Shown: positions 861-37,272, counted from the first letter of the stretch. The stretch: 64,000 nt of DNA from an uncultured Rhizobium sp. (GCA_964527775.1 CAZGQS010000005.1:2745-66744), one strand, 5' to 3'. Notes: a model not told the origin generated them from the letters alone. A program made the numbers and translations.

Positions 861-864
861 AGAA

Positions 865-4075: not shown

Positions 4076-4076
4076 A

Positions 4077-7234: not shown

Positions 7235-7237
7235 GCG

Positions 7238-7987: not shown

Positions 7988-7992
7988 TCATC

Positions 7993-8328
7993 TCAATTCA
8001 CAGAAATATTAGCTTTAATTTTATTAGTTAATTCTAACATCGATGGTCTGCTTATTGTTGCAAATCGTTTTATGATTATATTTCTGCTGACAGTAAATAT
8101 TTCATTGATTCGAACTTCACTGTCATATTTTAGCTCTCGGTCAATTTCTGATGTTAATAAGCGAAATGAAAATTGGTCAGAGCGAATCACTGAGGTGACT
8201 TTTGCCACTATATACGAACTTTGATTTTCTGTGGTCCTTGAAATAATCACGGCAGGTCTCTGTTTTATCCGAGATAAATCAGTAAATGGGTAAGGAATTA
8301 ATACAATATCTCCTTGCTTGTAATACAT
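7993..8328 (-). CDS. Type II toxin, PemK/MazF family endoribonuclease
   Basis: The N-terminal sequence GDIVLIPYPFTDLSRIKQRPAVIIS is the hallmark PemK/MazF SH3-like motif. The protein is 111 aa long. Confidence 0.85.
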   Translation of the reverse strand: MYYKQGDIVLIPYPFTDLSRIKQRPAVIISRTTENQSSYIVAKVTSVIRSDQFSFRLLTSEIDRELKYDSEVRINEIFTVSRNIIIKRFATISRPSMLELTNKIKANISVN

Positions 8329-8331
8329 ATT

Positions 8332-8763
8332 TCAATAAGTATTCCAATGGTCATCTAAGTTGTTATTCCAATCTGCAGATAACACAGCTTCCGATAATTG
8401 GTAGTTTTTATTTAAGTCTTCCACTGCATTCAACTGGTTATTTAATTGGATGATGGAATTGATTAATTCAAGAGAAGCAGTTTTGAATGGTCTTGCACTT
8501 TCCGCAGTGATTTGTTCTATATTGCTTTTGAGGTATTGTATGATTGGAATTAAAACTCTTAATGATTGTGCTTGGATTTTTGCTTTTTCAGCGCTGAGGT
8601 ATTTAACTTTTGAAATGGAATCTTTAATTCTTGATGATGATGCATTTATTCGTGGAATTGAATTGTCATTGAAGCTATTCCATGCATTTTGAGAATGATT
8701 GCTGCTGGTGATTGTTCCGATGGATTCAATAATCTTTTGAATATCGCTGTTCAAAGAAATCAT
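8332..8763 (-). CDS. Putative cognate antitoxin of the MazF-like toxin (atypical, 143 aa)
   Basis: It ends 3 nt upstream of the toxin gene. The C-terminal tail LSEAVLSADWNNNLDDHWNTY resembles the acidic Trp-containing tails I recall on short Bacteroidota antitoxins. The N-terminal ~115 aa are helical and unassigned. Confidence 0.45.
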   Translation of the reverse strand: MISLNSDIQKIIESIGTITSSNHSQNAWNSFNDNSIPRINASSSRIKDSISKVKYLSAEKAKIQAQSLRVLIPIIQYLKSNIEQITAESARPFKTASLELINSIIQLNNQLNAVEDLNKNYQLSEAVLSADWNNNLDDHWNTY

Positions 8764-10632: not shown

Positions 10633-11013
10633 TTATAAGATGGTTAACCCATAACTTTTGAATGACTTGTCTCGAGTTATTAATTTGAAATCATGATTTA
10701 AACACTGACTTATTATTATTCTATCAAATAGATCGGTATGGTGGTAAGGGAGATTTTGAAGCTTCAGGAAGTCTGAATTTTGAATAGGTAAAATTGCCCA
10801 GCCGCTTCGTTCGACGTAGAAGAATAAATCTGAAAGAGGTATGGGTAATGTTAATTTACCAATACTGATTTTGATGGTTAATTCCCAAATAGATGCTTGG
10901 CTGATAAAAATGTGATTTTGCGTGTCTTCGATGGTAGTTCTAATCTCATTGGTGATTTTGGGGTTCCCCTCAAGTATCCAAATTAATATATGAGTATCTA
11001 ATATTAGATTCAT
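10633..11013 (-). CDS. vapC: Type II toxin VapC (PIN-domain ribonuclease)
   Basis: The N-terminal LILDTHILIWIL motif is followed by later acidic PIN residues. It is 126 aa long and has a 4-nt ATGA overlap with the upstream gene. Confidence 0.9.
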   Translation of the reverse strand: MNLILDTHILIWILEGNPKITNEIRTTIEDTQNHIFISQASIWELTIKISIGKLTLPIPLSDLFFYVERSGWAILPIQNSDFLKLQNLPYHHTDLFDRIIISQCLNHDFKLITRDKSFKSYGLTIL

Positions 11014-11381
11014 GGGGTGTATTCTTTGAATTCATCTAAAGGAGCATCAAAATCTTCAGACATGAATATTTGCCCTTTTAATAATCCCCACAAACTTGGT
11101 CTTGTCTGACTAGAATTTTTATGAATCAGAAACTGAGTGAATTCAAGTACTTGAATTTGTTTTTGCAGAGGTAATTTTTCGAGTCCAGTGGTGACTTCTG
11201 TTGCAATACTGCTGACAGAGTTATAACTAGGTAAGGGCTCCGAAGCAATTTTTGTTTTATTGTAATTAATGAGTAAATCCTCAATTTTCTCGCTGAGACT
11301 TTTGCCTTCCTTTTTTGACCAGAATTTTGACTTTTGGTGTACGATTTCGTCAAGGGTAATGTTGATACGTTTTTTATTCAT
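11010..11381 (-). CDS. Antitoxin partner of VapC (RHH-like N-terminus plus DUF2281-like C-terminal tail)
   Basis: It is translationally coupled to vapC. The N-terminal INITLDEIVHQK region is ribbon-helix-helix-like. The C-terminal MSEDFDAPLDEFKEY matches the DUF2281-type tail as I recall it. Confidence 0.7.
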   Translation of the reverse strand: MNKKRINITLDEIVHQKSKFWSKKEGKSLSEKIEDLLINYNKTKIASEPLPSYNSVSSIATEVTTGLEKLPLQKQIQVLEFTQFLIHKNSSQTRPSLWGLLKGQIFMSEDFDAPLDEFKEYTP

Positions 11382-11423: not shown

Positions 11424-13001
11424 CTATTGCTTTTGCGTTTTTTGCAAAACTAGGTAGTCGATTTTGCTGAAATGACGGGGGTCACGGGGTATTTTGAGCA
11501 ATTTAACATCGCCGTCAGGCAGTCTCAAGGAACGCAAATCTTCTTCTACAGGAGAGAAGCAACCGAGTTTTGGGTATGCCAAATGCTTGAATGAATCGCA
11601 GCGATTTAACTCTAAAAAGTAAACTAATTTGTTATTGATTTTCAATACAGTGCCCATAATTACTCCTGGAATATGTCGCAATTGATATTCCATCAAGAAG
11701 GGATATAAAGATTGACCTTGCCAATCAATGATTTGTTGACAACGACCCAGAAGTCGGAGGTTTCCATTGGCGTCAATGTAACCCGAGTCGCCGGTTCGGT
11801 GGAATAGTTTTTGGTCAATTAGGATTTTGGAACTTGCCATTTGTTCTGCTGCTTGGGGACCAAAATATTCTTTAACTACATGGTTTCCGGCAACGGCAAT
11901 TTCGCCAATCTGACCCGTTTCAAGTACCTTTTGTGATTGGATATCTAAAATTTTAACGACAGTACAAGATTCTATTTTTCCTACACAAAGTCCATCTTCA
12001 AAAGTGGAATCGGCGGTCTGAATGAGCGTGCGTGCATTAATGCTGGAAATAGGTTCTGCCTCGGTACTACCGTAAACAATTTCAACCCTGGAATTTGGAA
12101 ATGCGGTGAGCCATAATTTGGCCTCAGAAGGAAACACGGGCGCCCCACCGCTGAAGACTTCACGCACCGAACCTAGATTGGGTGAAATGTTTTGAGATAG
12201 GCTCTTAATGCACAGTTGATCAATGAAATAGGGTGATGCGATGATGCGATTGACGCGAAACTTCTCTATGGTCTTAATGATCTTTTGAGCCTTTAATTTA
12301 TAGGGCTTTTTGCTGCTCCAATTCACAATGACGCTGCTCACTCCTAGGCCCAAATTAATCATTAAAACAATGGGCAAAACAGGCATATCTACCGTGTCAT
12401 CACGGGTTTGTAAGGTATTTTGGAGTGCTAAAAATTGTTGATGTAGAATTTCGTGGCTGCGTTTGACCGCTTTGGGAATACCCGTGCTGCCGGTGGTGAA
12501 CGTGATTAGTGCGGTGTCATTTGAGGCATCAATAGAAACCGCATCGTGGTAGAGGCTTTTCTTGGCGTTCTTTATTTCTCGCGTGGTAATGCGGATGGGT
12601 ATTTGTCTGATATCCCTGATTAAATGTCCCAAGAAAGAAGCCAACGAAATACCAATAAATCCTTTGCAGTCAGCTATTTGGCAGGAAGTTTTTAAGCGGT
12701 TAAGTTTGGCCCATTCATCGATAAAAACGGCCGTGCAACCCATTTGAAACAAGGCCAATACGCTGACATATAAATCAATGCTCATGGGAACGAAGACCAA
12801 AACGCGGTCACCTGACTTTAGGCCTCGTTCTACAAATAATGAATGCGCGGCATCAATTTTATGTCGAAGTTCACCGAAGGTAATCTTTGAATGTTCATCG
12901 GCGATGGCCAGGCGATTGGAATTCATGATCGCGGCAGCATGGAAATGTTCCATGATATTGCCTTTAGTTAAAGTCTGTGCGATATGAATGATGTTAGACA
13001 T
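11424..13001 (-). CDS. AMP-dependent synthetase/ligase (ANL superfamily)
   Basis: Core motifs are ITFTTGSTGIPKAV, YGSTEAEP and HRTGDSGYIDANGNLRLLGR. The start lies 2 nt after the stop of the upstream gene. Confidence 0.9.
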   Translation of the reverse strand: MSNIIHIAQTLTKGNIMEHFHAAAIMNSNRLAIADEHSKITFGELRHKIDAAHSLFVERGLKSGDRVLVFVPMSIDLYVSVLALFQMGCTAVFIDEWAKLNRLKTSCQIADCKGFIGISLASFLGHLIRDIRQIPIRITTREIKNAKKSLYHDAVSIDASNDTALITFTTGSTGIPKAVKRSHEILHQQFLALQNTLQTRDDTVDMPVLPIVLMINLGLGVSSVIVNWSSKKPYKLKAQKIIKTIEKFRVNRIIASPYFIDQLCIKSLSQNISPNLGSVREVFSGGAPVFPSEAKLWLTAFPNSRVEIVYGSTEAEPISSINARTLIQTADSTFEDGLCVGKIESCTVVKILDIQSQKVLETGQIGEIAVAGNHVVKEYFGPQAAEQMASSKILIDQKLFHRTGDSGYIDANGNLRLLGRCQQIIDWQGQSLYPFLMEYQLRHIPGVIMGTVLKINNKLVYFLELNRCDSFKHLAYPKLGCFSPVEEDLRSLRLPDGDVKLLKIPRDPRHFSKIDYLVLQKTQKQ

Positions 13002-13003: not shown

Positions 13004-15220
13004 TTATAGATCTATTCCATACAGTTGGTATTCAGAAATGATTTCGGCTTCCAAAGATTCAGAGCACCTCAATGATGCTGCGTCTATATGCATGAATGAA
13101 TGGACTACTTGAAAAATGCCCAGTTTTTTGGCTTTTTGTTGCAAAATATCTGTCATCACCAATCCCAATCCACCAAGTCTAAAATCGGGTTTTCGAGCTA
13201 CTGTTTTCATGATGATGGAATTATTTTCAATGTCTAAGTAGGCAAAGACAAATCCCTGCAAATTCCGTTCCAATTCTGCTAGAAGTACCCATTCGGGATC
13301 AATTAAATGTTTGATTTCGTTGTATTTCAGTAAAAAGTCTTTCCAATGTATGGGTGTATAGTAGGGATTGTGTTGGAAGGCCACGAGGCTGAGCTCGTGG
13401 ATTTTGTGAAGTTCTTCTTCCCAATGATTCGGGTTTAAATGCCTGAATCTGATGCCTTGGATTTCCAATTGACTTTTTCGGTCATCCAATCTGGAAATGC
13501 TACCAGGAATTTCGTGCATGAGGGTACTTACATATCGTTCAATGGGTTTGAATCCCGCATTTTCAAAGAACTCAATCTGTTCAGGTTGGTAGGGGATATC
13601 CCCCAAAAAATTGCGATGAGAAGTGGTTTTTAAACGATAATCGTTCCAAGTACTTCCTCCGTTCATGGGGCCAATGATGCGTTTGTAGCCGTTTTGTTGG
13701 GACCAAATTATCAGTTTTCGGAGGTCGGTGATCGGTGATCGGAGGTCGGTGATCGGTGATCGGAGGTCGGAGGTCGGTGATCGGAGGTCGGAGGTCGGTG
13801 ATCGGAGGTCGGTGGTCAGTACACGGCTATCAGAGTTCGGCTGACGGCTTTCGGCTGGTGGCTGTAGGTTGAAAGCTGAGGGCTGATTGCAGTTGACTGA
13901 TAGGGCTAATGTTTCTAAATTTAGGGGCCAGATATGGATGGTGATCGGTGATCGGAGATCGGTGGTCGGTGATTGGTGATCGGTGATCGGTGATCGGTGA
14001 TCGGTGGACAGTACACGGCTATCAGTGTTCGGCTGACGGCTGTCGGCTGATGGCTGATGGTTGCCCGCTGAAAGCTGATCGCTTTCGGCTGATGGCTGAA
14101 GGCTGAAAGCTGACGACTGATCGTTATAATCAATGACAATGGTATTGTAGAAGTAACCGTCGTCTTGAGCGCGGAGTTCCGACATGAGGTCTGATTGTTC
14201 TGTTAGTGTGGGAACTACCTGTGAACATCTTCGGGTGACCATCAAATTCCAGTAAGCCAAACGTCCCCCGGGAAAAAGACCGGAAGATAGTTTGGTGGCG
14301 GCCTCGCTGAATTCAGATTCATTCATATATTCGAAGATGTTGCTCAGGTTCATGGCGTGGAAATGTCCGTAATGAGAAATAGCGTCCTCGGCGAAACCGT
14401 GAAATAATGAAATTCTATGGATTCTGGCTTTGATGAATTCGTAGTTATTTGGTTGAAGGTAGTGGGGCAAAAGTTCGCCGAAACTGCCCGTTAGATTGTA
14501 GCGAAGAAAGGGGTTCTGCTGCGCGCTGACAGAACTTAAGTGAGTTTCAGCTTGATTCAATATGAAATCTGAAACGGGTATCTTCACTTGTTTTAAGAAT
14601 TCGGGGTCGCGGCCCAATCTTCCCATGACGGTGCGACTGAAAAACAATTTGAACAATCCGCGCCAACGCCAAGTGTTCCATTTGTTTAGAAAGAATTGGC
14701 GCTGTTCATGGGCCGATTTGGGAGCGAATAATTCAGCGATTCTATTTTTGTTGTGAATCAGCGGGAGGACTTTTTGGGAAAAAATTTGGAAGTACTTTTC
14801 GAATTTTCCATGATGAATGATGCCTGTTGAATTCCATTTAGACAGCGTTTTTGAGAAGTAATTGGCTGCATCTTTAGAAAGATGGGGAACTAATATGTTG
14901 AATAGATCCGCACGATTTGAGGCGGGTGAATATCCCAAGAAAGCAAGAACCTCGGAGTAAGTAAGGTGCTCAATGGCCCTAATTTTCAGCTCGGTTAAAT
15001 AGAGTTGAACAGGGTTGATGTCGGCGGCAACAATCAGTTTTGGGTCGGCCATCAACAGACTGAAACAGTTGTCACCTGCGGAGGCAATGCTTAACACCTG
15101 ATCGTGTTTCTGAATGTTGAGCGCTTTGAGCAAGACTTTGGGGTCTTCCCAAACCGTGGCATAACGAATGAAGTCAAACGATGCTGATTGTGAAATGCTC
15201 AATCTTCTAGTTCCCTCCAT
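13004..15220 (-). CDS. BtaA-like (DUF3419, SAM-dependent 3-amino-3-carboxypropyl transferase-like) N-domain joined to a GNAT-like C-domain through heptamer-repeat-encoded linkers
   Basis: The N-terminal ~365 aa carry FIRYATVWEDPKV and SIASAGDNCFS (BtaA-like). Residues ~366-500 are 7-aa repeats (DLRSPIT, DHRSPIT, SRQPSA). The C-terminal part has IIGPMNGGSTWNDYRL and an acyltransferase-like fold pattern. Confidence 0.7.
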   Translation of the reverse strand: MEGTRRLSISQSASFDFIRYATVWEDPKVLLKALNIQKHDQVLSIASAGDNCFSLLMADPKLIVAADINPVQLYLTELKIRAIEHLTYSEVLAFLGYSPASNRADLFNILVPHLSKDAANYFSKTLSKWNSTGIIHHGKFEKYFQIFSQKVLPLIHNKNRIAELFAPKSAHEQRQFFLNKWNTWRWRGLFKLFFSRTVMGRLGRDPEFLKQVKIPVSDFILNQAETHLSSVSAQQNPFLRYNLTGSFGELLPHYLQPNNYEFIKARIHRISLFHGFAEDAISHYGHFHAMNLSNIFEYMNESEFSEAATKLSSGLFPGGRLAYWNLMVTRRCSQVVPTLTEQSDLMSELRAQDDGYFYNTIVIDYNDQSSAFSLQPSAESDQLSAGNHQPSADSRQPNTDSRVLSTDHRSPITDHQSPTTDLRSPITIHIWPLNLETLALSVNCNQPSAFNLQPPAESRQPNSDSRVLTTDLRSPTSDLRSPTSDLRSPITDLRSPITDLRKLIIWSQQNGYKRIIGPMNGGSTWNDYRLKTTSHRNFLGDIPYQPEQIEFFENAGFKPIERYVSTLMHEIPGSISRLDDRKSQLEIQGIRFRHLNPNHWEEELHKIHELSLVAFQHNPYYTPIHWKDFLLKYNEIKHLIDPEWVLLAELERNLQGFVFAYLDIENNSIIMKTVARKPDFRLGGLGLVMTDILQQKAKKLGIFQVVHSFMHIDAASLRCSESLEAEIISEYQLYGIDL
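13719..13887. repeat. Heptanucleotide-phased tandem repeat block A1 (GGTGATC/GGAGGTC units, then GGCTGAC-type units)
   Basis: The period-7 repeats can be read directly. The block shares a near-identical ~47-nt core (13811-13857) with block A2 (14003-14049). Confidence 0.9.
13939..14122. repeat. Heptanucleotide-phased tandem repeat block A2 (GGTGATC x ~9, then GGCTGAT/GGCTGAA/AGCTGAx units)
   Basis: The period-7 repeats can be read directly. It is separated from A1 by ~50 nt of unique sequence that encodes IHIWPLNLETLALSVN on the minus strand. Confidence 0.9.
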
Positions 15221-17730
15221 GAATTCTCTAACACAATTTTGATTTTACCGGTGGCACCGTCCATTTCAACGATGTCGCCAGTTTCAAGTTGATTCAATAA
15301 ATTGGTGATACCCACAATGCAAGGTTTTCCTAATTCTCGTGAAACAATGGCGCTGTGAGATAGGAGGGAGCCTCTTTCTACCAAGATTCCAGATGCCGTT
15401 GGAAACAACATCACCCAACCTGGGTCGGTGGATGAGGTTACTAAAATGTCTCCATTTAAATCGCTCACTTCTCGAGGATCTATTACAATTCTCACCTTTG
15501 CTTTGACGATGCCAGGACAACACCCAATGCCTTTGAGATCAGCACCTTCCAACGAACTTTTGGTTTCTTGAATGAAAGAGTTTGCATGGTAGACGTTCCC
15601 ATAAGTTCTGATTCTTTCGGAGGTGTTTTGGGACTCGTAACCTTGGTATTTCACCTTTCTGAATTCTATGAGATCGGCAATTTCTGGCGTAACCGATGTT
15701 CCCTTGATGAAGTCAAAAATTTCTTCTTGGGTTAGGTAAAAAATGTCACGCGGGTGTTTGATGATGCCTTCGCCGTAAAATTGATTTCCGATGGCCAAAA
15801 ACAGTTCTCTTATTTTTCCAAATCCGCGGGTTCGTTCAAACCTGAGGTTTTCGCGCGCGCTCACCATTTCACGGGTTTTGCCCAAAACATAGTTGAAAAT
15901 CCGTCTTTTAATGGGTTTATCCCTGAAGGTTTCTTTAATAATGTCTTCGCCTTGTTTTCTGAGGTCTTTATGCGAAGGTTGGCCGTAAGATGGGTCGTTG
16001 GTTGAACTGTAATTCGCTTGATATCTCACGTGTGACTGAATCAAAGCTGCGAACATTGCAGGATCTTGTCTGTAGGTTATGGTTTCAAGTTTGAGTTCTC
16101 CCACGGTGCGGTCGCCAAATTTATCAATGTAGTATTTGAATTCTTTTAAAACGTTTTCAAAGTTTCTGTCTGTTTCAAAGGCTTTTAAAATCTCCTCGGG
16201 AGTGGCCTTAACTATAAATTCAATCCAATTCCAGTGCTTGCTAAGTTTGTCAACAATTTTTTCAATTTGATGGATGGGCTCTACTGAAATGATATCTCCA
16301 GCACTACTCAATAATTGATTGTGAATGCCGTCGGGGAGTTGATATTTTTCGGCCAACTTTTGAGTAAACCCAAAGTAAATCATGGCATAAAAATCATTCA
16401 CCAATGGAGCTTTCCATTTTTTCAAAAGGGTTTGTTCGAACCTTAAAATCAATTCCATCAACTCATGTGAATCTTTTTCGTGGAGCGGAATTTGGTTGAA
16501 TTCATCCATGACTTTTTGGAAGTCGGCTTGAAAAGTCACCCTCATTTTAGGAAGTGCCCTCAAGTTGCTGATCATCGATTTAATCATGATCAACACACGC
16601 GTTCTTTCGGTCCATTTGCTTCTTTTGGGAAGGTCTTTCAGCTCAAATCGCTCTTTCACGCCCATCATTTTCTCCATGAATTCGGCGTTGAGATGATATC
16701 CGGGCAATAAGGCTAGAGCTTTGTACCACGATAGAAGATTGTAATAAACTCGGCCGTTGATAAGACCCAGCATATTGGCAAAAATTCCCGCATTTTTGGT
16801 TAAATCTGCTTCGCTCACACCCAACAATCTGCAAAGTTGGATGTACACTGATTCATACATCTTAATGATAAAACTAAAGGTAAGGGGAGTGGTGACTCCC
16901 GGATACGATTCGATGATGTTGGAATTGTCCCACAGTATCATCTCCGATGATTGATCAGACGTCAGATTCAGCGTGGTTACGGGTCTGCTTTGAAGTAAGT
17001 AAAATTGCTCATCCTCCCAGCAAAATTCGATGTCTTGCGGTTTTTTGTAAAGAGCCTTCAGGTCGCTTAGAACCTTGCAAATATGTTTAAGCTGATTGGG
17101 TGTGAGTTTTGTTTCGGGGGATGCTTGGAAGTCAGAATCTATCAAATTTCTGGTTGTTGAATCCAAAATGTAGGTATCAGAATTCAACTCTCCGCTAACC
17201 AGTCCCTCACCCAAACCGCACACAGCCGATATCACGATTTCTTTGCGTTTGCCGTTGACGGGATTCATTCCAAAGGCAACACCTGAAACCGCAGGGTTGA
17301 GCATGCGCTGAATCACAATTCCCATTTTTTGTGGGGGTTCAATACCGTGTTCGTGGCAATAAGCAACCACTTCAGGTCGTTTGAGCGAGTTCCATACATT
17401 GGTGATGGCCTGATTCACTTGGTCCCATTCAACATTTAGTTGAGTCAGAAATTGACCGGCAAAACTCTGACTTCCGCTGTCTTCGCCCAACGCCGATGAT
17501 CTTACCGAAACGAATTTGGGACTGCCCAAATAGTCTTTGATTTCTTGAAGTTCAACCTCAGACAGTGGTTTTGAAATATCAATCTGTTGAGCATTGTACA
17601 CAACAAATTCAGGAACTTTGAATCCATAGTCTGAAAGATGCAACAGGTTGAATCCCTTCCCCCCACTGAATATGGGATTGGATTTTACATCGAATGGACT
17701 TTTATATAAAATGAACTTTACGAAATCCAT
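15199..17730 (-). CDS. PEP-utilizing-family dikinase-like enzyme (ATP-grasp N-domain, large central domain, C-terminal swivel phosphohistidine domain; no PEP/pyruvate TIM-barrel domain)
   Basis: The N-terminal GGKGFNLLHL...VPEFVV is a PPDK_N-type ATP-grasp motif. The C-terminal TSSTDPGWVMLFPTASGILVERGSLLSHSAIVSRELGKPCIVG is the mobile His domain. I chose the start at ATG 17730 (MDFVKF); the track start is 17781. Confidence 0.85.
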   Translation of the reverse strand: MDFVKFILYKSPFDVKSNPIFSGGKGFNLLHLSDYGFKVPEFVVYNAQQIDISKPLSEVELQEIKDYLGSPKFVSVRSSALGEDSGSQSFAGQFLTQLNVEWDQVNQAITNVWNSLKRPEVVAYCHEHGIEPPQKMGIVIQRMLNPAVSGVAFGMNPVNGKRKEIVISAVCGLGEGLVSGELNSDTYILDSTTRNLIDSDFQASPETKLTPNQLKHICKVLSDLKALYKKPQDIEFCWEDEQFYLLQSRPVTTLNLTSDQSSEMILWDNSNIIESYPGVTTPLTFSFIIKMYESVYIQLCRLLGVSEADLTKNAGIFANMLGLINGRVYYNLLSWYKALALLPGYHLNAEFMEKMMGVKERFELKDLPKRSKWTERTRVLIMIKSMISNLRALPKMRVTFQADFQKVMDEFNQIPLHEKDSHELMELILRFEQTLLKKWKAPLVNDFYAMIYFGFTQKLAEKYQLPDGIHNQLLSSAGDIISVEPIHQIEKIVDKLSKHWNWIEFIVKATPEEILKAFETDRNFENVLKEFKYYIDKFGDRTVGELKLETITYRQDPAMFAALIQSHVRYQANYSSTNDPSYGQPSHKDLRKQGEDIIKETFRDKPIKRRIFNYVLGKTREMVSARENLRFERTRGFGKIRELFLAIGNQFYGEGIIKHPRDIFYLTQEEIFDFIKGTSVTPEIADLIEFRKVKYQGYESQNTSERIRTYGNVYHANSFIQETKSSLEGADLKGIGCCPGIVKAKVRIVIDPREVSDLNGDILVTSSTDPGWVMLFPTASGILVERGSLLSHSAIVSRELGKPCIVGITNLLNQLETGDIVEMDGATGKIKIVLENSWRELED

Positions 17731-18644
17731 TGCCAGGCGGTGAGTATTCCTCCGAGGGTTAGGTACATGAGAATGGTCCATAGTCCGCTGGCAATTTCAA
17801 CGCCTTTGGCGGTTTTAGAACTCTTGTATTTAAAATGTAGCGCTGCTGATATTAGGGTCAAGACAAAATAGATAAGCAATGCGGCAAACACACTACTGGG
17901 TAATTTTGCATAATCTGCTGCGAGGATGGCCAGTATCAATGTCCCCAGAAGAACAAACATCCAAAGCCAAAGGGCTTTGCTGAGACCCAACATGGCTGAG
18001 TAAGTTTGAACACCGGGTTTTTCATCGTGGGGAGCACGGATTTTACGTCCCAATTCCAACACAATGCCGTTCATGAAAGACACCCCGAAGAAGTATAACA
18101 GTCCGAAAGGAGCTGGATTATCAGATAGTTTCCAATCATATCCTGATGCATAAACATCAATCAAAGGAATGATGAGCATGTGGGATGTGACGTACCAAAA
18201 CTGGTGGTTTTTGAGCCAATCTTTGATAAAGAATTCTTTGCCCATGAGCAGTAAATAACCAATTGCAAGGGCATAGAGGGGAAGCATATTAGGAAATGTC
18301 AACGCGCTGATGATGATTTGAGCGGCAAAGACAAACCAAGCAATGTTTCGGAGTTCTTTTAGAGAAATGAGTCCTCGAGGAACGGGCAGTTCTGAGCGGT
18401 AGAGGGCATCGTCTTCGGCGTCTTTGTGTTCATCAAAAACACGAAGCAAAAAGAAGAGGGTTACCGTGTTGAAAATGCAGACCAAAAACTTTTCCCAGCC
18501 AATGAATCCGGGGAGTTGTTGCGACAATCTAGAATAGCCTATGGCGCTGAAACTGAAGGCAGAGATGAGGATTCCGTGGGAGTGTAGAGGGAATCTTTCA
18601 TTGAGGTATTGCCAAAATCTTTGGTAGAGTGGGGTTTGGGACAT
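17718..18644 (-). CDS. UbiA-superfamily prenyltransferase (integral membrane)
   Basis: About 8-9 TM segments. The first Asp-rich motif is LLRVFDEHKDAEDD. A second motif-like region is APHDEKPGVQTYS. Confidence 0.85.
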   Translation of the reverse strand: MSQTPLYQRFWQYLNERFPLHSHGILISAFSFSAIGYSRLSQQLPGFIGWEKFLVCIFNTVTLFFLLRVFDEHKDAEDDALYRSELPVPRGLISLKELRNIAWFVFAAQIIISALTFPNMLPLYALAIGYLLLMGKEFFIKDWLKNHQFWYVTSHMLIIPLIDVYASGYDWKLSDNPAPFGLLYFFGVSFMNGIVLELGRKIRAPHDEKPGVQTYSAMLGLSKALWLWMFVLLGTLILAILAADYAKLPSSVFAALLIYFVLTLISAALHFKYKSSKTAKGVEIASGLWTILMYLTLGGILTAWQWIS

Positions 18645-18762
18645 GGGATAGGTTCTGAAAGGTTCGAATGTACGCGGATTTTGAAGAGGTTCAAAAAGGA
18701 AAAATGCAAAAAGTGAAGTTGTAAATTACGGATTATCCTTAAAAATTAAAGATTTAGGTGGA

Positions 18763-18770
18763 TATATTTG
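18763..18770 (+). promoter_or_regulatory. Candidate Bacteroidota -7 promoter box (TATATTTG)
   Basis: It matches the TAnnTTTG consensus and lies 10 nt upstream of ATG 18781. Confidence 0.35.
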
Positions 18771-18780
18771 CCTTCCATTG

Positions 18781-21060
18781 ATGAAAGTTAGTGAATTGAA
18801 TGTGCCATTTGTTCCCGGTAGAGGTTTTAATACCTCTTCGGCGGTTCAAATGCGTTTGGATTATCTTAGAAAAAGAGAGATTTCTCTTCCGTCTCTAGAA
18901 ACACATCAGTTGCCCTTAGACGAAGTAAGAAATAATATAGAATCATTTATAGGAAGCGTAGAGATTCCTGTGGGCTTAGTTGGCCCACTGTTATACCATG
19001 GTGAAGATGGTCAGGATGAATGGGTTCATGCTCCCGCCGCCACCTTGGAAGGTGCTTTGGTTTACAGCATGAACAGAGGTGCAAAGTTGATCTCAAAAAG
19101 CGGCGGTTTTACCGCTCATTTTCATTATCAGAAAATGCTGCGGGCGCCCATGTTTATATTGGGAAACCCAGATGTAGTCCAGAAGTTATCTGAATTTATT
19201 TCATCGAATTTTGATGCCATTAAAGAGGTTGCCGAGTCTTATTCCAATCACGGAAAGCTTATTGAAGTTCAGTGCGAACCCATTGATAATCATTTAAATG
19301 CTTATTTTTATTATGTGACAGGAGATGCCGCAGGACAGAATTTAACCACTACTTGTACATGGCACGCGCTTCAATTTATTGCTGAAAATTTTGACGGGGA
19401 GATTTTAGATTATGTCATAGAGGGCAATGGCGCATCCGATAAAAAAATATCCCTCAGAAACATAGAAAAGGGAAGAGGCAGTAAAGTGTCAGCTGAAGTT
19501 GTAGTTGATGATGCGATGATAGAAGAAGTTTTGAGAACTACTTCTGATCAAATCATGAGGTATTTTGAGCCGTCTAAGCGCATTGCATTGCAACACGGTA
19601 TGGTTGGATATAGCATCAATGCGGCCAATGCCATTGCCGCTATTTTTGCTGCTACGGGACAAGACCTCGCGTGCATTCATGAGTCGGCGACGGCATTTTT
19701 AGACATCGAAAGGCTTGAAAATGGGCTTAAATTCTCTTTGCTTTTGCCTAATTTGGTCATTGGAACTGTGGGTGGCGGCACTCATTTGGCTAAGCAATCG
19801 GATGCTTTGAATTTGATGGGTTGCAAGGGCTCAGGTAAGGTCAAGCGCTTCGCTGAACTCATTGCTGGGTTCACTCTAGCCCTTGAAATATCTACTTTTG
19901 GAGCCATAGTGAGCGGCGAGTTTGCTAAGTCACACGAGAAGTTGGGAAGAAATAAGCCTCAAAGTTGGTTGCTAAAATCTGAAGTTAATCTTGATTTCGT
20001 AAAGTCAATTTTGGTTGCTAAAGATGCTCCTTCGGTTGAATTTCTTGAATGGCAAAGTCATTTGTACTTTGACAATGGCATCATCACCCAACTTTCTCAA
20101 AAAGTGAGTAAAAAGCTTCAAGGTTATTACTTGTTGAAGGTCAAAGAGTCTAGTAACGGATTGGTGCTTTTGAAGTCGCGTCCCACCAGCGACGAAGTCA
20201 TCAAAGGGCTGCACTTGATTGCGGTTTCGGTTGACGGTCAACTCGCTGATTTATTGTTGTTTTGTCGAGAGTATTTGGAGTTTCACCAATGCCATTTGAA
20301 GGAATTGGCAATCAATAGGTTTTTGTTTTCCGGGGGATATGCTTACGCTCCCAAATATTATGGTGATAAAATTGACAGTCAGCGCGAGATTTTTTTGCTC
20401 GCTCAAGAATATATTTACCCTCAGAATACCCGTTTACTGAACTCGGAAGATCAGCCCAATTTATGGCAATCAGTTGATGTCATAAAATGCATCGACGCCA
20501 TAAACGAGTTTCACATCAAAACGTTTGGGTTAGATGGTATTGAAGATGTTCAGATTCCATTGCAACAACCCTGGCTCGCAAGCTCTTTCTACCAGCGTTT
20601 ACAAGAGATCTTGGTTCAAACTTGGGATGGTGACCATTTGGAAGTCTTGAAAAGTCTCAACATTGCTTCGTTGGATGAAGAATTTTCAACCCTAAAAATG
20701 CCTACCTGTTTTATTCACAACGACTTTAATCCACGAAACATCATGATTCTTAAAAATGGTAATCCCGTAATTTACGATTGGGAATTAACCGTGAGAGACA
20801 TACCGCAGCGTGATATTATGGAGTTGTTGTGTTTTGTTTTAAAAGATGATGAATCACCCGAACCATATATGCGTTATCACTGTAAACTAATAAACGCAGA
20901 TTGGGCAGAATATCAACGCGCTGCAAAATATGCCTTAAAGAGTTTGATTCTAACTAGATTTGCGTTGTACGAAGTATCGGGAATTGTAGCGAAGTATGAG
21001 TTCTCGAAGCGCGTGATGGGGAAGGCGTTGAATTTGACGGCTTCGCCGGAGACTTTTTGA
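18781..21060 (+). CDS. HMG-CoA-reductase-like (class I type) catalytic domain fused to an APH/choline-kinase-like phosphotransferase domain
   Basis: HMGR-like motifs are ESFIGSVEIPVGLVGPL, TLEGALVYS, GDAAGQN, ASDKK, ATGQDLA, GTVGGGT and KSHEKLGRN. Kinase motifs are FIHNDFNPRNIMI and IYDWELT. The track start is 18778 (TTG), followed immediately by ATG. Confidence 0.8.
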   Translation: MKVSELNVPFVPGRGFNTSSAVQMRLDYLRKREISLPSLETHQLPLDEVRNNIESFIGSVEIPVGLVGPLLYHGEDGQDEWVHAPAATLEGALVYSMNRGAKLISKSGGFTAHFHYQKMLRAPMFILGNPDVVQKLSEFISSNFDAIKEVAESYSNHGKLIEVQCEPIDNHLNAYFYYVTGDAAGQNLTTTCTWHALQFIAENFDGEILDYVIEGNGASDKKISLRNIEKGRGSKVSAEVVVDDAMIEEVLRTTSDQIMRYFEPSKRIALQHGMVGYSINAANAIAAIFAATGQDLACIHESATAFLDIERLENGLKFSLLLPNLVIGTVGGGTHLAKQSDALNLMGCKGSGKVKRFAELIAGFTLALEISTFGAIVSGEFAKSHEKLGRNKPQSWLLKSEVNLDFVKSILVAKDAPSVEFLEWQSHLYFDNGIITQLSQKVSKKLQGYYLLKVKESSNGLVLLKSRPTSDEVIKGLHLIAVSVDGQLADLLLFCREYLEFHQCHLKELAINRFLFSGGYAYAPKYYGDKIDSQREIFLLAQEYIYPQNTRLLNSEDQPNLWQSVDVIKCIDAINEFHIKTFGLDGIEDVQIPLQQPWLASSFYQRLQEILVQTWDGDHLEVLKSLNIASLDEEFSTLKMPTCFIHNDFNPRNIMILKNGNPVIYDWELTVRDIPQRDIMELLCFVLKDDESPEPYMRYHCKLINADWAEYQRAAKYALKSLILTRFALYEVSGIVAKYEFSKRVMGKALNLTASPETF

Positions 21061-22020: not shown

Positions 22021-22779
22021 ATGAACACGTTTATTTCAAAACTTCAAGGTGATATTCAGGCGCAGCGTGCCCAACTTCTTCAGCATCCCGTTTATCAAAG
22101 CATCAATGACCTAAATGGGTTGATTGAGTTTTCGCAAAAACATGTTTTTGCGGTGTGGGATTTTATGAGTTTATTGAAGGCCTTGCAGCGCGATTTGACT
22201 TGCGTAGATCTTCCTTGGGTTCCGGTGGGAACGGCAGATACTCGCTATTTGATCAACGAAATTGTTTTGGGAGAAGAATCAGATGTAGATGAAAATGGGG
22301 TTCGTATTTCTCATTTTGAATTGTACATCAAAGCCATGAATCAAATGGGAGCCAATTTTCAGCCCATATTTGAATTGATTGATTCTTTAAAATCAGAACA
22401 TATTTTCTCTGCTATAGACAAGGCTAACTTACACCCTAAGGTAAAATCATTCTTACATTTCACTTTTGATGTTGCCTTAAATGCACCCACTCACGTGAAA
22501 GCGGCTGTTTTTACTTTCGGACGTGAAGATTTGATTCCAGATATGTTCGTAGAAATTCTACAACAGATTTATAAAGATCACCCAGAGAAGGTCTCTACTT
22601 TTAAATATTACATCGAAAGACACATCGAAGTTGACGGAGATCACCACTCTCACCTAGCTCTGGAAATGGTATCTCAACTTTGTGGAGATGACGAATCAAA
22701 ATGGGAAGAAGCTTCTCGTTATTCTGTTGAATCTTTGAAGCAGCGCTCGTTGCTTTGGGATGCGATTATTGATAGATAA
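22021..22779 (+). CDS. DUF3050-family (heme-oxygenase-like fold, MgoB-like) protein
   Basis: The sequence HPVYQSI...KHVFAVWDFMSLLKALQ matches what I recall of the DUF3050 family. The protein appears all-helical. Confidence 0.55.
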   Translation: MNTFISKLQGDIQAQRAQLLQHPVYQSINDLNGLIEFSQKHVFAVWDFMSLLKALQRDLTCVDLPWVPVGTADTRYLINEIVLGEESDVDENGVRISHFELYIKAMNQMGANFQPIFELIDSLKSEHIFSAIDKANLHPKVKSFLHFTFDVALNAPTHVKAAVFTFGREDLIPDMFVEILQQIYKDHPEKVSTFKYYIERHIEVDGDHHSHLALEMVSQLCGDDESKWEEASRYSVESLKQRSLLWDAIIDR

Positions 22780-27019: not shown

Positions 27020-28564
27020 ATGAAACGTATGCAATTAAAAATATTTTTTTTGCCCTTTATTCTATTTTTGGCAGCAAAGATAGGCGCTCAATCTGCACCC
27101 AATTGGAGCGAACATGTAGCTCCCATCATTTATAAAAGTTGTACTCCTTGTCATTCCAGTGGCGGTATTGCTCCGTTTGCCTTGAGCAATTACCAAGAGG
27201 TTAAATACCTAGGCAATGCGGTGGTTTCGGCAACACAGGCACGTAGAATGCCCCCTTATCCTGCAAGTTTAGAAAAAAATAGATACGCTCATGAAAATGT
27301 TCTGTCTGCCTATGAAATTGACGTAATCAAGCGGTGGAATGAGAATAAACATCCCCAGGGAGACACCACCAAAGAACCCAAAAAACCCGTTTTGAATTCA
27401 AACAGTGACTTGCCTCGCGTGGATGTTACCTATAAAATGACGCCTTACCTGGTGAAGACCAATAGCGATGTTTACAGATGTTTCGCGATTCCTAGCAACT
27501 TGTTTTCTGATAAAATGATCAAAGGGATGGAAGTGATTCCTGGAAACAGAAAAGTGGTGCATCACGTTTTGGTATTTCAAGATACCTCACAAAAGCCCTT
27601 ACAATTAGACAATGCTGATCCAGAACCCGGCTATAAGGCCTTCGGAAGCACCGGCAGTGCGAGTTCTACTTTGTTGGGGATGTACGTTCCAGGTCAGTCA
27701 CCGTTTTTGTATCCATCAAATTTTGCTGCTCGACTGAAAAAGAACAGTGTAATTGTGCTTCAAATTCACTATCCCCCAGGTATCAACGAAATTTGGGATT
27801 CTACCAAGCTCAATTTGATGCTCGAAGACCCCTCAAATCAAAGAGAAGTTTTTGTGCAATCACCATTGAATTTTCAAAGTCCCTCTCTCGTAAACGGTCC
27901 ATTATACATCGAAGCCAATGCCATAAAAACATTTTACAATCGATTTGTTATGCCTGCGAAAATCAGTCTTTTGGCGGTGGCTCCCCACATGCATTTGTTG
28001 GGTGATACTATAAAATCATCTTTGATAAATGGAACCGATACTACTCCCATTATTGATATTCCCAAGTGGGATTTCCATTGGCAAATGGCCTATCAATTTC
28101 GCAAGCCTATCGTTGCTGATAAAGGGTCAGTTCTCTGGGGTAAGGCAACCTATGATAATACCTATGCCAATCCGCACAACCCGAATGTTCCTCCACGTGA
28201 TGTGAGAGCAGGAGAGGGTACTGCCGATGAAATGTTCTTGATTTATTTCTGGTATACTCTCTACAAGTCGGGCGATGAGAATTTGGAATTGGATACCACG
28301 CCGCTAAAGATGTTGAGTGTTTCTAAGGTAAATCCAAATAACATGCTGGTATATCCTAATCCCGCAAACAATCAAATCAACGTAATCAATGCACTTCATG
28401 GGTCAAAGATTCGTGTCTATAATTCTGTGGGAAAACTGATCTTTGAAACCTCGGTGAACAGCGCCACAACATTTATCAATGTCCATAATTGGCCCGACGG
28501 AATGTATATTATTCAAAATTCAAGTTTGAATGGAGATTCGATTGTTCGATTTTTGAAGAATTAG
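27020..28564 (+). CDS. Secreted cytochrome c-like domain fused to a PHM/DBH-like copper type II monooxygenase, with a T9SS type A C-terminal domain
   Basis: It has a signal peptide, a CTPCH heme-binding motif with a downstream RRMPPYP, and Cu-site-like motifs VHHVLVF, LQIHYPPG, APHMHLLG and GTADEMFLIYFWY. The C-terminal LVYPNPANNQINVI... is a Por_Secre_tail-type domain. Confidence 0.7.
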   Translation: MKRMQLKIFFLPFILFLAAKIGAQSAPNWSEHVAPIIYKSCTPCHSSGGIAPFALSNYQEVKYLGNAVVSATQARRMPPYPASLEKNRYAHENVLSAYEIDVIKRWNENKHPQGDTTKEPKKPVLNSNSDLPRVDVTYKMTPYLVKTNSDVYRCFAIPSNLFSDKMIKGMEVIPGNRKVVHHVLVFQDTSQKPLQLDNADPEPGYKAFGSTGSASSTLLGMYVPGQSPFLYPSNFAARLKKNSVIVLQIHYPPGINEIWDSTKLNLMLEDPSNQREVFVQSPLNFQSPSLVNGPLYIEANAIKTFYNRFVMPAKISLLAVAPHMHLLGDTIKSSLINGTDTTPIIDIPKWDFHWQMAYQFRKPIVADKGSVLWGKATYDNTYANPHNPNVPPRDVRAGEGTADEMFLIYFWYTLYKSGDENLELDTTPLKMLSVSKVNPNNMLVYPNPANNQINVINALHGSKIRVYNSVGKLIFETSVNSATTFINVHNWPDGMYIIQNSSLNGDSIVRFLKN

Positions 28565-32321: not shown

Positions 32322-32339
32322 GGAAATAAATGAGTGTGT

Positions 32340-37264: not shown

Positions 37265-37272
37265 TAACTTTG
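37265..37272 (+). promoter_or_regulatory. Candidate -7 promoter box (TAACTTTG)
   Basis: It matches TAnnTTTG. It overlaps the track TTG start at 37270, which suggests the real start is ATG 37282 (MKKLQK). Confidence 0.4.

Follow-up and report, generated by a model that had tools for sequence, protein, structure and literature searches.

To our knowledge, the HMG-CoA reductase (HMGR) fold was seen as specific to mevalonate synthesis until 2025. The description of FcrA, an HMGR homologue that reduces C4-C18 acyl-CoA and not HMG-CoA, showed that an enzyme of the same fold can reduce fatty acyl-CoA (Grossi et al. 2025, ISME J; PMC11948995). Three substitutions were reported for FcrA (Ser684 to Glu, the HMG-binding Lys to a small residue and Leu862 to a bulky one), and certain members carry an N-terminal Lad (long-chain alkyl carrier) domain (PMC11948995); since only those were described with it, Lad is not obligatory. 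The other relevant relatives are the canonical class I HMGRs (EC 1.1.1.34; human 1DQA and M. thermolithotrophicus 6HR7) and the kinases of the APH clan (choline/ethanolamine kinases, type II homoserine kinase and aminoglycoside phosphotransferases), all of which phosphorylate hydroxyl groups of small molecules.

Here we compare with these systems a gene from a 64-kb window (the whole stretch of DNA that was analysed) whose product joins both folds. The reductase half is of a known kind, and the kinase fusion and its proposed pathway appear to be new. We found no paper on the kinase fusion or on its gene cluster. The fusion is absent from the main text and one supplementary file of PMC11948995, and the lipocone paper mentions HMGR only beside GHMP kinases. 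This agrees with the initial annotation, which knew of no description of the fusion; the architecture is common in databases, labeled "phosphotransferase" or "hydroxymethylglutaryl-CoA reductase (NADPH)."

Domain layout and active site of the reductase half

The gene, a complete ORF on the plus strand, encodes 759 aa (18781-21060; ATG at 18781, stop codon TGA at 21058-21060), and independent gene calls of two public assemblies give an identical 759-aa product. An in-frame TTG is located at 18778, just ahead of the ATG. The HMG-CoA_red domain (PF00368) covers aa 22-390 (18844-19950) and profile positions 2-368 of 368 (E=1.6e-95). The kinase domain occupies aa 392-759 (19954-21057), with the Pfam APH match at aa 522-708 (nt 20344-20904; E=3.3e-9, 37.3 bits versus a cut-off of 23.2). 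The reductase-kinase fusion read by the initial annotation is thus real, and its assignment of the C-terminal part to the choline-kinase/APH type holds. The peptide HEKLGRNKPxxW (H385-W396, 19933-19968) joins the reductase's C-terminal helix to the kinase, and across 24 aligned fusion proteins its residues H385, K387, G389, R390, N391, K392, P393 and W396 show no variation. The pLDDT of this junction is low in the predicted structure (below 50 for residues 388-391), and the full-length model (pTM 0.59) does not fix the mutual placement of the two domains, which leaves substrate channelling between them hypothetical. As the HMGR core begins at about aa 10-22, there is no N-terminal extension and hence no Lad domain, and Pfam found no SDR (NAD_binding_4), adenylation or carrier domain in the protein.

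All the motifs listed in the initial annotation are present, once each and in the order given: ESFIG (54-58), PVGLVGPL (63-70), TLEGALV (88-94), GDAAGQN (181-187), ASDKK (218-222), GQDLA (293-297), GTVGGGT (328-334) and SHEKLGRN (384-391) in the reductase half, followed by HNDFNPRN (646-653) and DWE (666-668) in the kinase. The best solved relatives of the reductase are the class I HMGRs 6hr7 and 1dqa (Foldseek E~1e-25 to 1e-22; 36% identity to 6hr7), with which it shares the fold, the catalytic residues, the DKK of the cis-loop, the closing C-terminal His helix and, presumably, the four-electron thioester-to-alcohol chemistry. Alignment with human HMGR 1dq8 (numbered as chain index + 421) equates E90 (19048-19050) with E559, K221 (19441-19443) with K691, D295 (19663-19665) with D767 and H385 (19933-19935) with H866, all on the plus strand, so the four catalytic residues named in the initial annotation (Glu, Lys, Asp, His) are indeed there. 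This tetrad is kept in 43 fusion proteins, the sole exception being a 5'-truncated sequence with a gap at E559. The equivalents of E559, S565, R568, R590, D690, K691, K692, N755, D767 and H866 are kept in 41 to 43 of the 43, and the exceptions are one 5'-truncated and one alignment-edge sequence.

The pocket differs from that of a canonical HMGR. Both contacts to the HMG carboxylate, Ser684 and Lys735 (the latter through a salt bridge; PMC9500038), are absent from the window protein. The S684 position is E214 (19420-19422), and all 43 fusion proteins have an acidic residue there, either Glu or Asp. In the K735 column Lys occurs in 0/43 and Arg in 2/43, with no conserved basic residue within ±8 columns among these 43 proteins. 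At the L862 position (F381), the 43 fusion proteins all have Phe, the 27 non-fused relatives all have either F or W, and three canonical HMGRs have L. By residue alignment, E214, S265/P264 and F381 (plus strand) are in the FcrA state. Two further changes, H752 to Asn (N280) and L853 to Thr (T372), also on the plus strand, characterize the fusion subfamily, as they occur in 43/43 fusion proteins versus 2/27 non-fused relatives. Residues touching the polar part of HMG (R590, D690, K692, N755) are kept, and the score against the HMGR equivalog TIGR00533 (NCBIfam) is 261.1 bits, below its cut-off of 441.8. Of the substitutions flagged in the initial annotation, the one in the NADP loop stood, since DAMGMN has become DA[A/S]GQN in the fusion proteins (DAAGQN in the window protein), and it joins S684 to E214, the loss of K735, L862 to F381, H752 to N280 and L853 to T372 as an informative change. 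The other, EGALVYS (Cys561 to Ala), was ruled out as diagnostic, because 6hr7, a bona fide HMGR of archaeal origin, reads EGALVAS and the Tyr occurs in only 3/43 fusions.

All three residues that distinguish FcrA are therefore in the FcrA state, and the landmark spacing equals that of published N. pharaonis FcrA, the numbering being shifted by a constant 146-147. The domain is classed as FcrA-type from its signature residues and from this comparison with the published numbers. The fusion protein is not an ordinary HMGR, and the substrate of its reductase half is probably not HMG-CoA. The different substrate proposed in the initial annotation had already been established for the FcrA clade (Grossi et al., PMC11948995), where it is fatty acyl-CoA, and the analogy with mevalonate kinase is for this reason only formal. 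The window protein departs from FcrA in having Phe, not Trp, at 862, in the extra H752N and L853T, and in carrying a C-terminal kinase of about 370 aa and no Lad. With H752N and L853T in the pocket, the enzyme might take something different from plain fatty acyl-CoA, for example an acyl-CoA that is branched or bears a 3-hydroxy group.

Kinase half and spread of the fusion family

The kinase was modelled on its own because HMGR chains swamped the full-length Foldseek search. The model (pLDDT 92.5, pTM 0.92) matches choline kinase, type II homoserine kinase and LicA with probability 1.00, and ethanolamine kinase too, at a low likeness (TM 0.4-0.6, identity 10-17%); a PDB sequence search with the domain gave no significant match. 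It shares with the APH clan the bilobal fold, the HxDxxxxN motif and the metal-binding Asp, here as a Brenner-type H646-x-D648-x4-N653 and as D666-W-E668 for the metal-binding loop, and K445 would be the beta3 Lys. None of K445, H646/D648/N653 and D666 varies among 24 aligned fusion proteins, and the kinase domain is intact. It differs from the known members of the clan in belonging to a small family that is mostly fused to reductases and whose substrate would be a long-chain alcohol. No GHMP family matched the fusion protein in Pfam or NCBIfam, GHMP being presumably also the type of the Flavobacterium johnsoniae mevalonate-pathway kinases. The reductase plus mevalonate kinase pair is formally similar, as a CoA thioester becomes a primary alcohol that is then phosphorylated with ATP, but mevalonate kinases have the unrelated GHMP fold, the window lacks the downstream mevalonate enzymes and the substrate is probably not HMG-CoA. 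The refuting case set out in the initial annotation, in which the protein is the genome's only HMGR, of the ordinary kind, and its C-domain a kinase known from the mevalonate pathway, does not apply.

The database search suggested in the initial annotation returned more than 120 full-length homologues of the fusion at 45-94% identity, together with full-length matches in other phyla at 31-36%, which places the architecture far beyond chance. The fusion is also found in Streptomyces, Paenibacillus and Moraxellaceae. The kinase family is small (422 representative clusters among 1.84 billion proteins), and its full-length members mostly sit behind a thioester reductase, either of the HMGR fold or an unrelated SDR-type R domain. 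Among the best 149 newly returned representatives, 81 follow an HMGR-fold domain and 17 an SDR thioester reductase (NAD_binding_4/TIGR01746), the rest being of stand-alone size (26), fragments (24) or other (1). Thioester reductase-kinase fusions are sometimes preceded by a fatty-acyl-AMP ligase (FAAL) and a carrier domain. One protein (P0230) reads FAAL-carrier-HMGR-kinase, with a FadD32-like FAAL part (428 bits), another (P0207) FAAL-SDR-reductase-kinase, and AMP-binding-carrier-HMGR proteins occur as well (c35). Stand-alone FcrA homologues with no APH domain occupy the same cluster in Sphingobacterium and Dyadobacter, so the kinase must be dispensable or replaceable there.

These architectures recall the A-T-R logic of carboxylic acid reductases, NRPS-type terminal reductases and ElbD-type enzymes, in which an acid is activated, held as a thioester and reduced with NAD(P)H, the resulting alcohol serving to build lipids or ether lipids. 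The sister proteins P0202 and P0207 use an SDR R domain with the same kinase family, and some homologues are themselves FAAL-carrier-HMGR(-kinase) proteins. The window reductase, in contrast, has the HMGR fold and not the SDR fold, its ligase is a separate gene and it has no carrier domain. The resemblance is functional, and the window protein is not a member of this group.

Gene neighbourhood in the window and elsewhere

A divergent intergenic region (18645-18780) separates the fusion gene from an operon on the minus strand that starts with a UbiA-like gene. Within it, as read directly in the sequence, TATATTTG, about 12 nt upstream of the ATG, fits what we take to be the Bacteroidota -7 promoter consensus TAnnTTTG and is a putative promoter element. 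The UbiA-superfamily membrane transferase (17718-18644, minus strand, 308 aa) belongs to no characterised subfamily, as it scores below all NCBIfam cut-offs, and a PDB sequence search gave no match. It is followed on the same strand by a rifampin-phosphotransferase (Rph)-type ATP-dependent dikinase of 860 aa (15199-17781), with PPDK_N and the PEP-utilizers swivel-His domain and Listeria Rph 5hv2/5fbs as best PDB match (E=1e-52). Next, also on the minus strand, are a 738-aa protein (13004-15220) in which a repetitive low-complexity stretch links DUF3419 (BtaA-like, aa 8-364) to a GNAT-like part (aa ~500-738), and a 525-aa AMP-binding enzyme (11424-13001). The latter comes closest to the fatty-acid CoA ligase family PRK09274, where its 307 bits fall short of the cut-off (478), and it is likely to supply acyl-CoA. 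Homologues of CarS, CDP-OH phosphatidyltransferase, MMPL, PlsC and desaturase were not found in the window by tblastn, so these are not part of the window locus.

In other genomes the set is broader. Where a fusion locus has 5 kb or more of flanking DNA on each side (28 loci), the flanking genes include an Rph-like dikinase (17 loci), a UbiA-like protein (14), a CarS/CdsA-like protein (14) and a CDP-OH phosphatidyltransferase (13), and at other fusion loci TMPK-like kinases and NTP_transf_5 replace those partners. All these recurrent neighbours are enzymes of phosphate-ester substrates. The clusters also contain MMPL lipid exporters, PlsC-like acyltransferase, fatty-acid desaturases, PEMT/ICMT-like methyltransferases and a BtaA-like (homoserine-transferring) protein. 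The conserved set (dikinase, UbiA-like transferase, CarS/CdsA-like, CDP-alcohol transferase, BtaA-like, GNAT-like and MMPL) extends over Bacteroidota, Gammaproteobacteria, Bdellovibrionota, Desulfobacterota, Bacillota, Gemmatimonadota and Riflebacteria-type candidate lineages. The neighbours present in the window, the fatty-acid CoA ligase among them, likewise belong to a cluster that several phyla share. At loci of high GC content the simple ORF caller produced spurious antisense ORFs (clusters c20 and c21, and ORFs next to L049, L054 and L064), and for this reason the contexts of Actinomycetota stand-alone homologues were left out.

Genes for HMG-CoA synthase, mevalonate or phosphomevalonate (GHMP) kinase and decarboxylase are missing from the 64-kb window, and none is among the recurrent families within 10 kb of 43 fusion loci, a result that covers Pfam calls for L001-L006 and cluster representatives, not every flanking ORF. 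Contexts free of mevalonate genes and ties to fadD-like ligases and ACP/FAAL fusions are shared with FcrA, whereas the dikinase, UbiA and CDP-type enzymes seen here differ from wax-ester synthesis, and no WS/DGAT was seen. Families of the archaeal ether-lipid pathway (UbiA-type DGGGPS, CarS, CDP-alcohol phosphatidyltransferases) recur beside the fusion in many genomes. However, the members at the fusion loci are distant and uncharacterised, the chain would come from a fatty acid and not from prenyl diphosphate, no GGGPS or G1P dehydrogenase was seen, and the window has the UbiA-like gene only.

A candidate lipid pathway and its alternatives

The reading that we favour, and consider reasonably probable, is that the fusion protein converts fatty acyl-CoA into a fatty alcohol and then into an alkyl phosphate, with its neighbours supplying the substrate and consuming the product on the way to a membrane lipid. 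The divergently transcribed ligase-like enzyme would make the acyl-CoA. The N-terminal domain, a presumably neofunctionalised class I HMGR fold with the same Glu/Lys/Asp/His chemistry, would then spend two NAD(P)H on taking the thioester of a long-chain (fatty or lipid) acyl-CoA, not HMG-CoA, through the aldehyde to the primary alcohol, by analogy with an FcrA activity that was assayed on a different family member (PMC11948995). The substrate is presumably a CoA thioester, since the ligase is a separate gene and the protein has no carrier domain. The kinase would phosphorylate the alcohol with ATP to a long-chain alkyl phosphate, which the dikinase and the UbiA-like transferase may handle here, and which in other genomes may pass to CarS/CdsA-like cytidylyltransferases and CDP-alcohol phosphatidyltransferases, or to TMPK-like kinases and a nucleotidyltransferase. 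That the same kinase family follows two unrelated thioester reductases (81 HMGR-fold and 17 SDR-fold of the best 149) would be hard to explain if its substrate were not the reductase product, so the direct phosphorylation of the alcohol suggested in the initial annotation seems probable. That hundreds of sequences in databases join a dedicated kinase to the reductase also points to the fatty alcohol phosphate as a committed intermediate. We considered other products as well, namely N-acyl-amino-alcohols, prenol made from 3-methylcrotonyl-CoA and 1,3-diols made from 3-hydroxyacyl-CoA, and saw nothing that speaks for any of them in particular.

The two halves could instead serve co-regulation and not consecutive steps, with the FcrA-type domain making fatty alcohol and the kinase acting on a different molecule of the pathway, for which a choline-, ethanolamine- or homoserine-type head-group alcohol and a hydroxyl of some lipid intermediate formed later are candidates. 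The closest kinase structures, the CDP-alcohol phosphatidyltransferases, PEMT/ICMT-like methyltransferases and BtaA-like protein of the clusters, and a Sphingobacterium and Dyadobacter cluster that works with no APH domain would all fit. The low likeness to choline kinase, the invariant junction peptide and the position of the kinase directly behind two kinds of reductase make this unlikely. CarS/CdsA-type cytidylyltransferases act on lipid phosphates, and their presence in the clusters, together with MMPL, PlsC-like proteins and desaturases, speaks against a further proposal, that the reductase takes a short or polar (hydroxy- or amino-) acyl-CoA and that the alcohol phosphate becomes a new polar head group by a Kennedy-like CDP route. 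The acidic E214, the retained HMG-contact residues and a pocket made more polar by H752N and L853T than in non-fused relatives are in its favour, as is the finding that, of the 59 members of the FcrA clade that were modelled, 12 accommodate smaller molecules only (PMC11948995). We nevertheless regard it as quite improbable, as the FadD32-like FAAL fusion indicates long-chain acids and the adjacent ligase is closest to fatty-acid CoA ligases.

Streptomyces, Paenibacillus and Moraxellaceae use the MEP pathway, and the fusion in these lineages is difficult to reconcile with a genuine HMGR fused to a non-GHMP mevalonate kinase, which would make phosphomevalonate for isoprenoids and maybe feed the adjacent UbiA prenyltransferase. 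Such a role would be consistent with the conserved tetrad and HMG contacts, with the adjoining UbiA-family gene and with the TMPK-like P-loop kinases of some loci, which could resemble animal phosphomevalonate kinase in function; some Bacteroidota, including F. johnsoniae, do use the mevalonate pathway (PMC6107057). The F. johnsoniae kinases of that pathway are, however, distant relatives of known enzymes (PMC6107057), the three HMG-selectivity residues are all in the FcrA state (PMC11948995), and the score falls short of TIGR00533. With the same kinase joined to SDR-type fatty thioester reductases and FAALs, and the other mevalonate genes missing from the recurrent neighbours of the 43 loci, this role is highly implausible.

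Returning to the conversion of fatty acyl-CoA to alkyl phosphate, we can tentatively extend it to a fuller scheme, possible but doubtful as a whole, in which the fusion protein catalyses the first step of a bacterial lipid pathway not described before, one that applies archaeal-style chemistry to fatty-acid-derived chains by one or both of two routes. In route (a), a CarS/CdsA-like enzyme would activate the alkyl phosphate with CTP and a CDP-alcohol phosphatidyltransferase would add the head group, giving glycerol-free alkyl-phospho-head-group lipids. In route (b), the Rph-type dikinase would form an alkyl diphosphate, or the alkyl phosphate would act as nucleophile, and the UbiA-like transferase would produce ether- or phospho-linked lipids.

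The fusion locus suggests a concrete second role for an FcrA-type reductase, beyond wax esters. If the favoured reading is true, the widespread labels "HMG-CoA reductase (NADPH)" and "phosphotransferase" would be corrected, and the fusion gene would no longer be counted as evidence of the mevalonate pathway in genome surveys. It would also point to an unrecognised bacterial lipid family, possibly of ether-linked or glycerol-free phospholipids, and, if routes (a) or (b) operate, a new class of membrane lipid in several bacterial phyla.

Domain composition and the reductase half

The gene at 18781-21060 (+) is a single long ORF of 759 aa, with its ATG at 18781, an in-frame TTG one codon 5' of it, and the stop codon at 21058-21060. 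The identical product has been called in two public assemblies, where it adjoins the same UbiA-like and dikinase genes. The reductase-kinase fusion proposed in the initial annotation was confirmed by Pfam domains, motifs, solved relatives, and model fold. HMG-CoA_red spans aa 22 to 390 with the entire profile covered (E=1.6e-95), the APH phosphotransferase family matches aa 522 to 708 above its gathering score (E=3.3e-9), and each motif that had been listed occurs once, in the order claimed. The closest solved relatives of the reductase half are class I HMG-CoA reductases (HMGRs), with that of Methanothermococcus (6hr7, E=2e-69) ahead of those of Arabidopsis and human, and fold comparison of a full-length AlphaFold model (pLDDT 85) likewise leads to class I HMGR.

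We surveyed the active site in 43 full-length fusion proteins from many phyla, 27 nonfused relatives, and 3 canonical enzymes, with human numbering transferred through the 1dq8 alignment (chain index + 421). The catalytic Glu, Lys, Asp, and His described as intact map, by alignment to human HMGR, to E90, K221, D295, and H385 of the window protein (E559, K691, D767, and H866) and are almost fully conserved in the 43 fusion proteins, as are S565, R568, R590, D690, K692, and N755. The pocket is different. In genuine HMGRs, the terminal carboxylate of HMG receives a salt bridge from Lys735, and Ser684 is among the polar contacts (PMC9500038). The Ser684 position is acidic in all 43 fusion proteins (Glu in 38, Asp in 5; E214 in the window protein), the Lys735 column contains no Lys and only two Arg, with no conserved basic residue within 8 columns of it, and Leu862 is always Phe (F381). 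His752 is replaced by Asn and Leu853 by Thr in 43/43, and DAMGMN by DA[A/S]GQN. This last substitution had already been pointed out and held across the fusion proteins, while the two odd residues noted around EGCLV were uninformative: a genuine archaeal HMGR has the same Cys-to-Ala change, and the Tyr of EGALVYS is present in only 3 of the 43.

These three pocket states are those of FcrA, an HMGR-related fatty acyl-CoA reductase that reduces C4-C18 acyl-CoA and not HMG-CoA, described with an assayed enzyme from Promineifilum by Grossi et al. (2025, ISME J, PMC11948995). The FcrA group takes in most bacterial class I sequences and retains the catalytic tetrad, with Ser684 changed to Glu, the conserved Lys that binds HMG (Lys795 in print, evidently Lys735) to a small residue, and Leu862 to a bulky one, Trp528 in N. 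pharaonis (PMC11948995). The landmarks of the window protein follow the published numbering of N. pharaonis FcrA at a constant offset of 146-147, which places Ser265 of the window protein at the lost-Lys position; the offset corresponds to an N-terminal Lad domain absent from the window protein. A true HMGR would agree with the fold and the tetrad; the NCBIfam HMGR equivalog gives 261 bits against a cutoff of 441.8. Because of the three FcrA-state residues and the matching landmark spacing, the N-terminal half is best filed as an FcrA-type acyl-CoA reductase, an assignment that we regard as very probable and that was made by signature residues and published numbering rather than by a tree with the characterized enzyme. 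The H752N and L853T changes, together with the polar residues that are kept, are compatible with a modified acyl chain, e.g., 3-hydroxy or branched.

The Vibrio-type HMGR is a long-known orphan in the older literature. A stand-alone "class I HMGR" of the Vibrionaceae member Photobacterium minamisatsumaniensis (locus L071, 9884-11143) has the FcrA-type signature, with Asp at 684 and no Lys at 735, so the orphan Vibrio-type enzyme may belong to the same nonmevalonate group.

The kinase domain and its fusion partners

The kinase domain (aa 392-759), modeled separately with 23 homologues, gave a confident structure (pLDDT 92.5, pTM 0.92). Sequence search found no match for it in the PDB. Foldseek matched the model to choline kinases, type II homoserine kinase, LicA, CotS/YtaA, ethanolamine kinase, fructosamine-3-kinase, and aminoglycoside phosphotransferases, with a probability of 1.00 throughout, yet with TM scores of 0.4-0.6 and 10-17% identity. 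The catalytic residues K445, H646-x-D648-x4-N653, and D666-W-E668 are invariant across the family, and the C-terminal kinase recognized initially from HNDFNPRN and DWE is thus borne out by Pfam APH, the model, and these motifs. The junction HEKLGRNKPxxW, right after the catalytic His, is also invariant and is predicted to be flexible.

When the kinase domain by itself was searched against 1.84 billion representative proteins, there were 422 matches with E<=1e-3, of which 166 had E<=1e-10. We sorted the 149 newly returned best matches with purpose-built HMMs and tested selected ones against Pfam and NCBIfam. More than half (78/149) carry an HMGR-fold domain before the kinase; two more of ~1040 aa (P0125 and P0127) have a TMPK-like P-loop kinase ahead of both, and one of 1454 aa (P0230) a FadD32-like fatty acyl-AMP ligase (FAAL) and a carrier. 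Another 16 place an SDR thioester reductase (NAD_binding_4) before the kinase, such as P0202 with a PP-binding domain, and in P0207 (1486 aa) a FAAL precedes the SDR thioester reductase (TIGR01746, 293 bits), the sizes of these carrier- or FAAL-containing proteins being 879-1486 aa. The remainder are kinases of stand-alone size (26), fragments (24), and one other architecture. Two unrelated reductase folds that carry out the same thioester-to-alcohol reaction are thus found directly upstream of one small kinase family, sometimes preceded by a fatty-acid-activating module. Of the available evidence, this argues most strongly that the kinase would act on the alcohol produced by the fused reductase, and that the chain would be fatty.

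Proteins of ~1000 aa combining AMP-binding, carrier (LDSLG), and FcrA-like HMGR domains occur in Riflebacteria/Ozemobacter MAGs (loci L053, L061, L066, and L072), for example at L066:8126-11140, followed by formyltransferase-like and UbiA-like genes. Their layout is similar to that of carboxylic acid reductase but is built on the HMGR fold, and they add to the reading of a reductase product with a fatty chain.

Gene cluster, neighborhoods, and distribution

Four genes diverge from the fusion gene across a 136-bp spacer, all on the minus strand. The first (17718-18644) encodes a membrane protein of the UbiA superfamily. It is followed by the gene for a dikinase of the rifampin-phosphotransferase type (Rph-like; 15199-17781; 860 aa), best matched among solved structures by rifampin phosphotransferases of Listeria, then by that for a 738-aa protein in which DUF3419 (BtaA-like) is joined to a weakly GNAT-like domain (13004-15220), and finally by that for an AMP-binding enzyme (11424-13001) most similar to fatty-acid CoA ligases. 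The DUF3419/GNAT-like linker is a low-complexity region of 7-aa units (SPITDLR/SPTSDLR-like) encoded by 7- and 21-nt tandem repeats (13718-14123); its copy number appears to vary, as the orthologue in the related MAG of locus L007 has 681 aa. The cluster is bordered by toxin-antitoxin genes on one side and by an M48 peptidase and, beyond it, a DUF3050 gene (22021-22779, +) on the other. At L007, a DUF3050 homologue lies within 10 kb of the fusion gene, with several inserted genes between. A VanW-domain gene (8825-10600) sits between two toxin-antitoxin-like pairs (7993-8763 and 10633-11381, -), which mark the boundary of the lipid cluster. In the first pair, a PemK/MazF toxin (7993-8328, -) has an unannotated ORF of 143 aa upstream of it; in the second, DUF2281/DUF6364 (11010-11381) is the partner of a PIN-domain toxin (10633-11013, -).

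We called and clustered the ORFs of 80 loci from a species-level genome collection and six from assemblies. For 28 fusion loci, 5 kb or more of flank was available on each side, and the neighbors in these were an Rph-like dikinase (17 loci), UbiA-like (14), a CarS-like or CdsA-like cytidylyltransferase (14), CDP-alcohol phosphatidyltransferase (13), AMP-binding ligase (8), GNAT-like (8), and MMPL exporter (6). The cluster partners are overwhelmingly phosphate-ester and lipid enzymes. HMG-CoA synthase, GHMP kinase, and decarboxylase genes are absent from the 64-kb window and not recurrent near the fusion gene in the surveyed loci; CarS-like and CDP-alcohol transferase homologues are also absent from the window. 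The minimal module, in Kordia, consists of the fusion gene, CarS-like, and CDP-OH phosphatidyltransferase; in some loci, two TMPK-like kinases and an NTP_transf_5 nucleotidyltransferase are replacement partners, and loci of the Flavobacterium gilvum type additionally carry a PlsC-like acyltransferase, desaturases, and a methyltransferase. The same operon occurs with an unfused FcrA-like gene in Sphingobacterium, Dyadobacter, and Longimicrobiaceae, and also in a Riflebacteria MAG, in which AMP-binding and carrier domains take the place of the kinase as fusion partners of the FcrA-like domain.

A Bacteroidia MAG (JAMNXP010000002.1) is the nearest genome, with 94% protein identity and the same gene order. 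Proteins in the window that are sorted by type IX secretion likewise point to Bacteroidota. Full-length fusions are found in Kordia, Psychroserpens, Winogradskyella, F. gilvum, Saprospiraceae, and Phaeodactylibacter and, at 31-36% identity, in Moraxellaceae, Ketobacter, Bermanella, Zooshikella, Streptomyces, Entotheonella, Planctomycetota, Bdellovibrionales, Myxococcaceae, Desulfomonilia, Paenibacillus, and Rickettsiales MAGs, labeled in databases as "phosphotransferase" or "hydroxymethylglutaryl-CoA reductase (NADPH)." Culturable carriers include F. gilvum, Kordia jejudonensis, Psychroserpens sp. NJDZ02, and Phaeodactylibacter luteus, with Sphingobacterium and Dyadobacter representing the unfused form. 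All fusion proteins share N752/T853, seen in only two nonfused relatives that are probably split or frameshifted copies, which suggests a single origin of the fusion followed by horizontal spread.

Elsewhere in the window, a locus for polysaccharide export and glycosyltransferases (SLBB protein, Wzz-like protein, GT1, GT2, and GT4) lies in a low-GC stretch (~1-8000, 29-34% versus ~40-44% for the remainder), along with three ORFs of ~330-350 aa that had no Pfam match. A second low-GC patch (51976-56519, ~31-34%), with three ORFs lacking a Pfam match and an adjoining tRNA-Arg(ACG) (56083-56157, -), may be an integrated element. The 2644-aa product of 37270-45204 (+) is a predicted giant surface protein exported by type IX secretion (T9SS), given its about ten PKD repeats and CHU_C signal. 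The product of 27020-28564 (+) combines, unusually for a bacterium, a T9SS C-terminal sorting domain with weak matches to both halves of copper type II ascorbate-dependent monooxygenases (PHM/DBH-like). An operon at 30015-33835 (-) codes for a GH65 phosphorylase, a HAD-family hydrolase, possibly beta-phosphoglucomutase-like though matched by HAD domains only, and a BadF/BcrAD-type ATPase, with a divergent NrtR-like Nudix regulator (34010-34780).

A putative route to alkyl phosphates

In the mechanism we propose, a fatty-acid CoA ligase would supply an acyl-CoA, the FcrA-type domain would reduce it to the alcohol by two hydride transfers, the fused kinase would convert the alcohol to an alkyl phosphate, and partner enzymes would activate or transfer the latter. 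UbiA enzymes normally ionize allylic diphosphates, so a saturated alkyl diphosphate would be an unusual donor; alternatively, the alkyl phosphate could act as the nucleophile at the UbiA-like step, by analogy with decaprenyl phosphate, the nucleophile for a UbiA-family phosphoribosyltransferase. We consider the reductase-then-kinase mechanism reasonably likely. It combines the observed architecture, residue conservation, fusion patterns, and neighborhoods with the activity borrowed from FcrA (PMC11948995), and from these we infer the type of chain, the kinase substrate, and all downstream steps.

The fusions named in PMC11948995 are to Lad and ACP, and the words "kinase" and "phosphotransferase" do not appear in its main text or in one supplementary file. 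The initial annotation knew of no report of the fusion, and we found no description of it in the literature. Its overall interpretation was essentially right: the reductase half is of a kind already described in 2025, while the fusion to a kinase, the alkyl phosphate that it implies as an intermediate, and the cluster conserved in several phyla are, as far as we found, undescribed.
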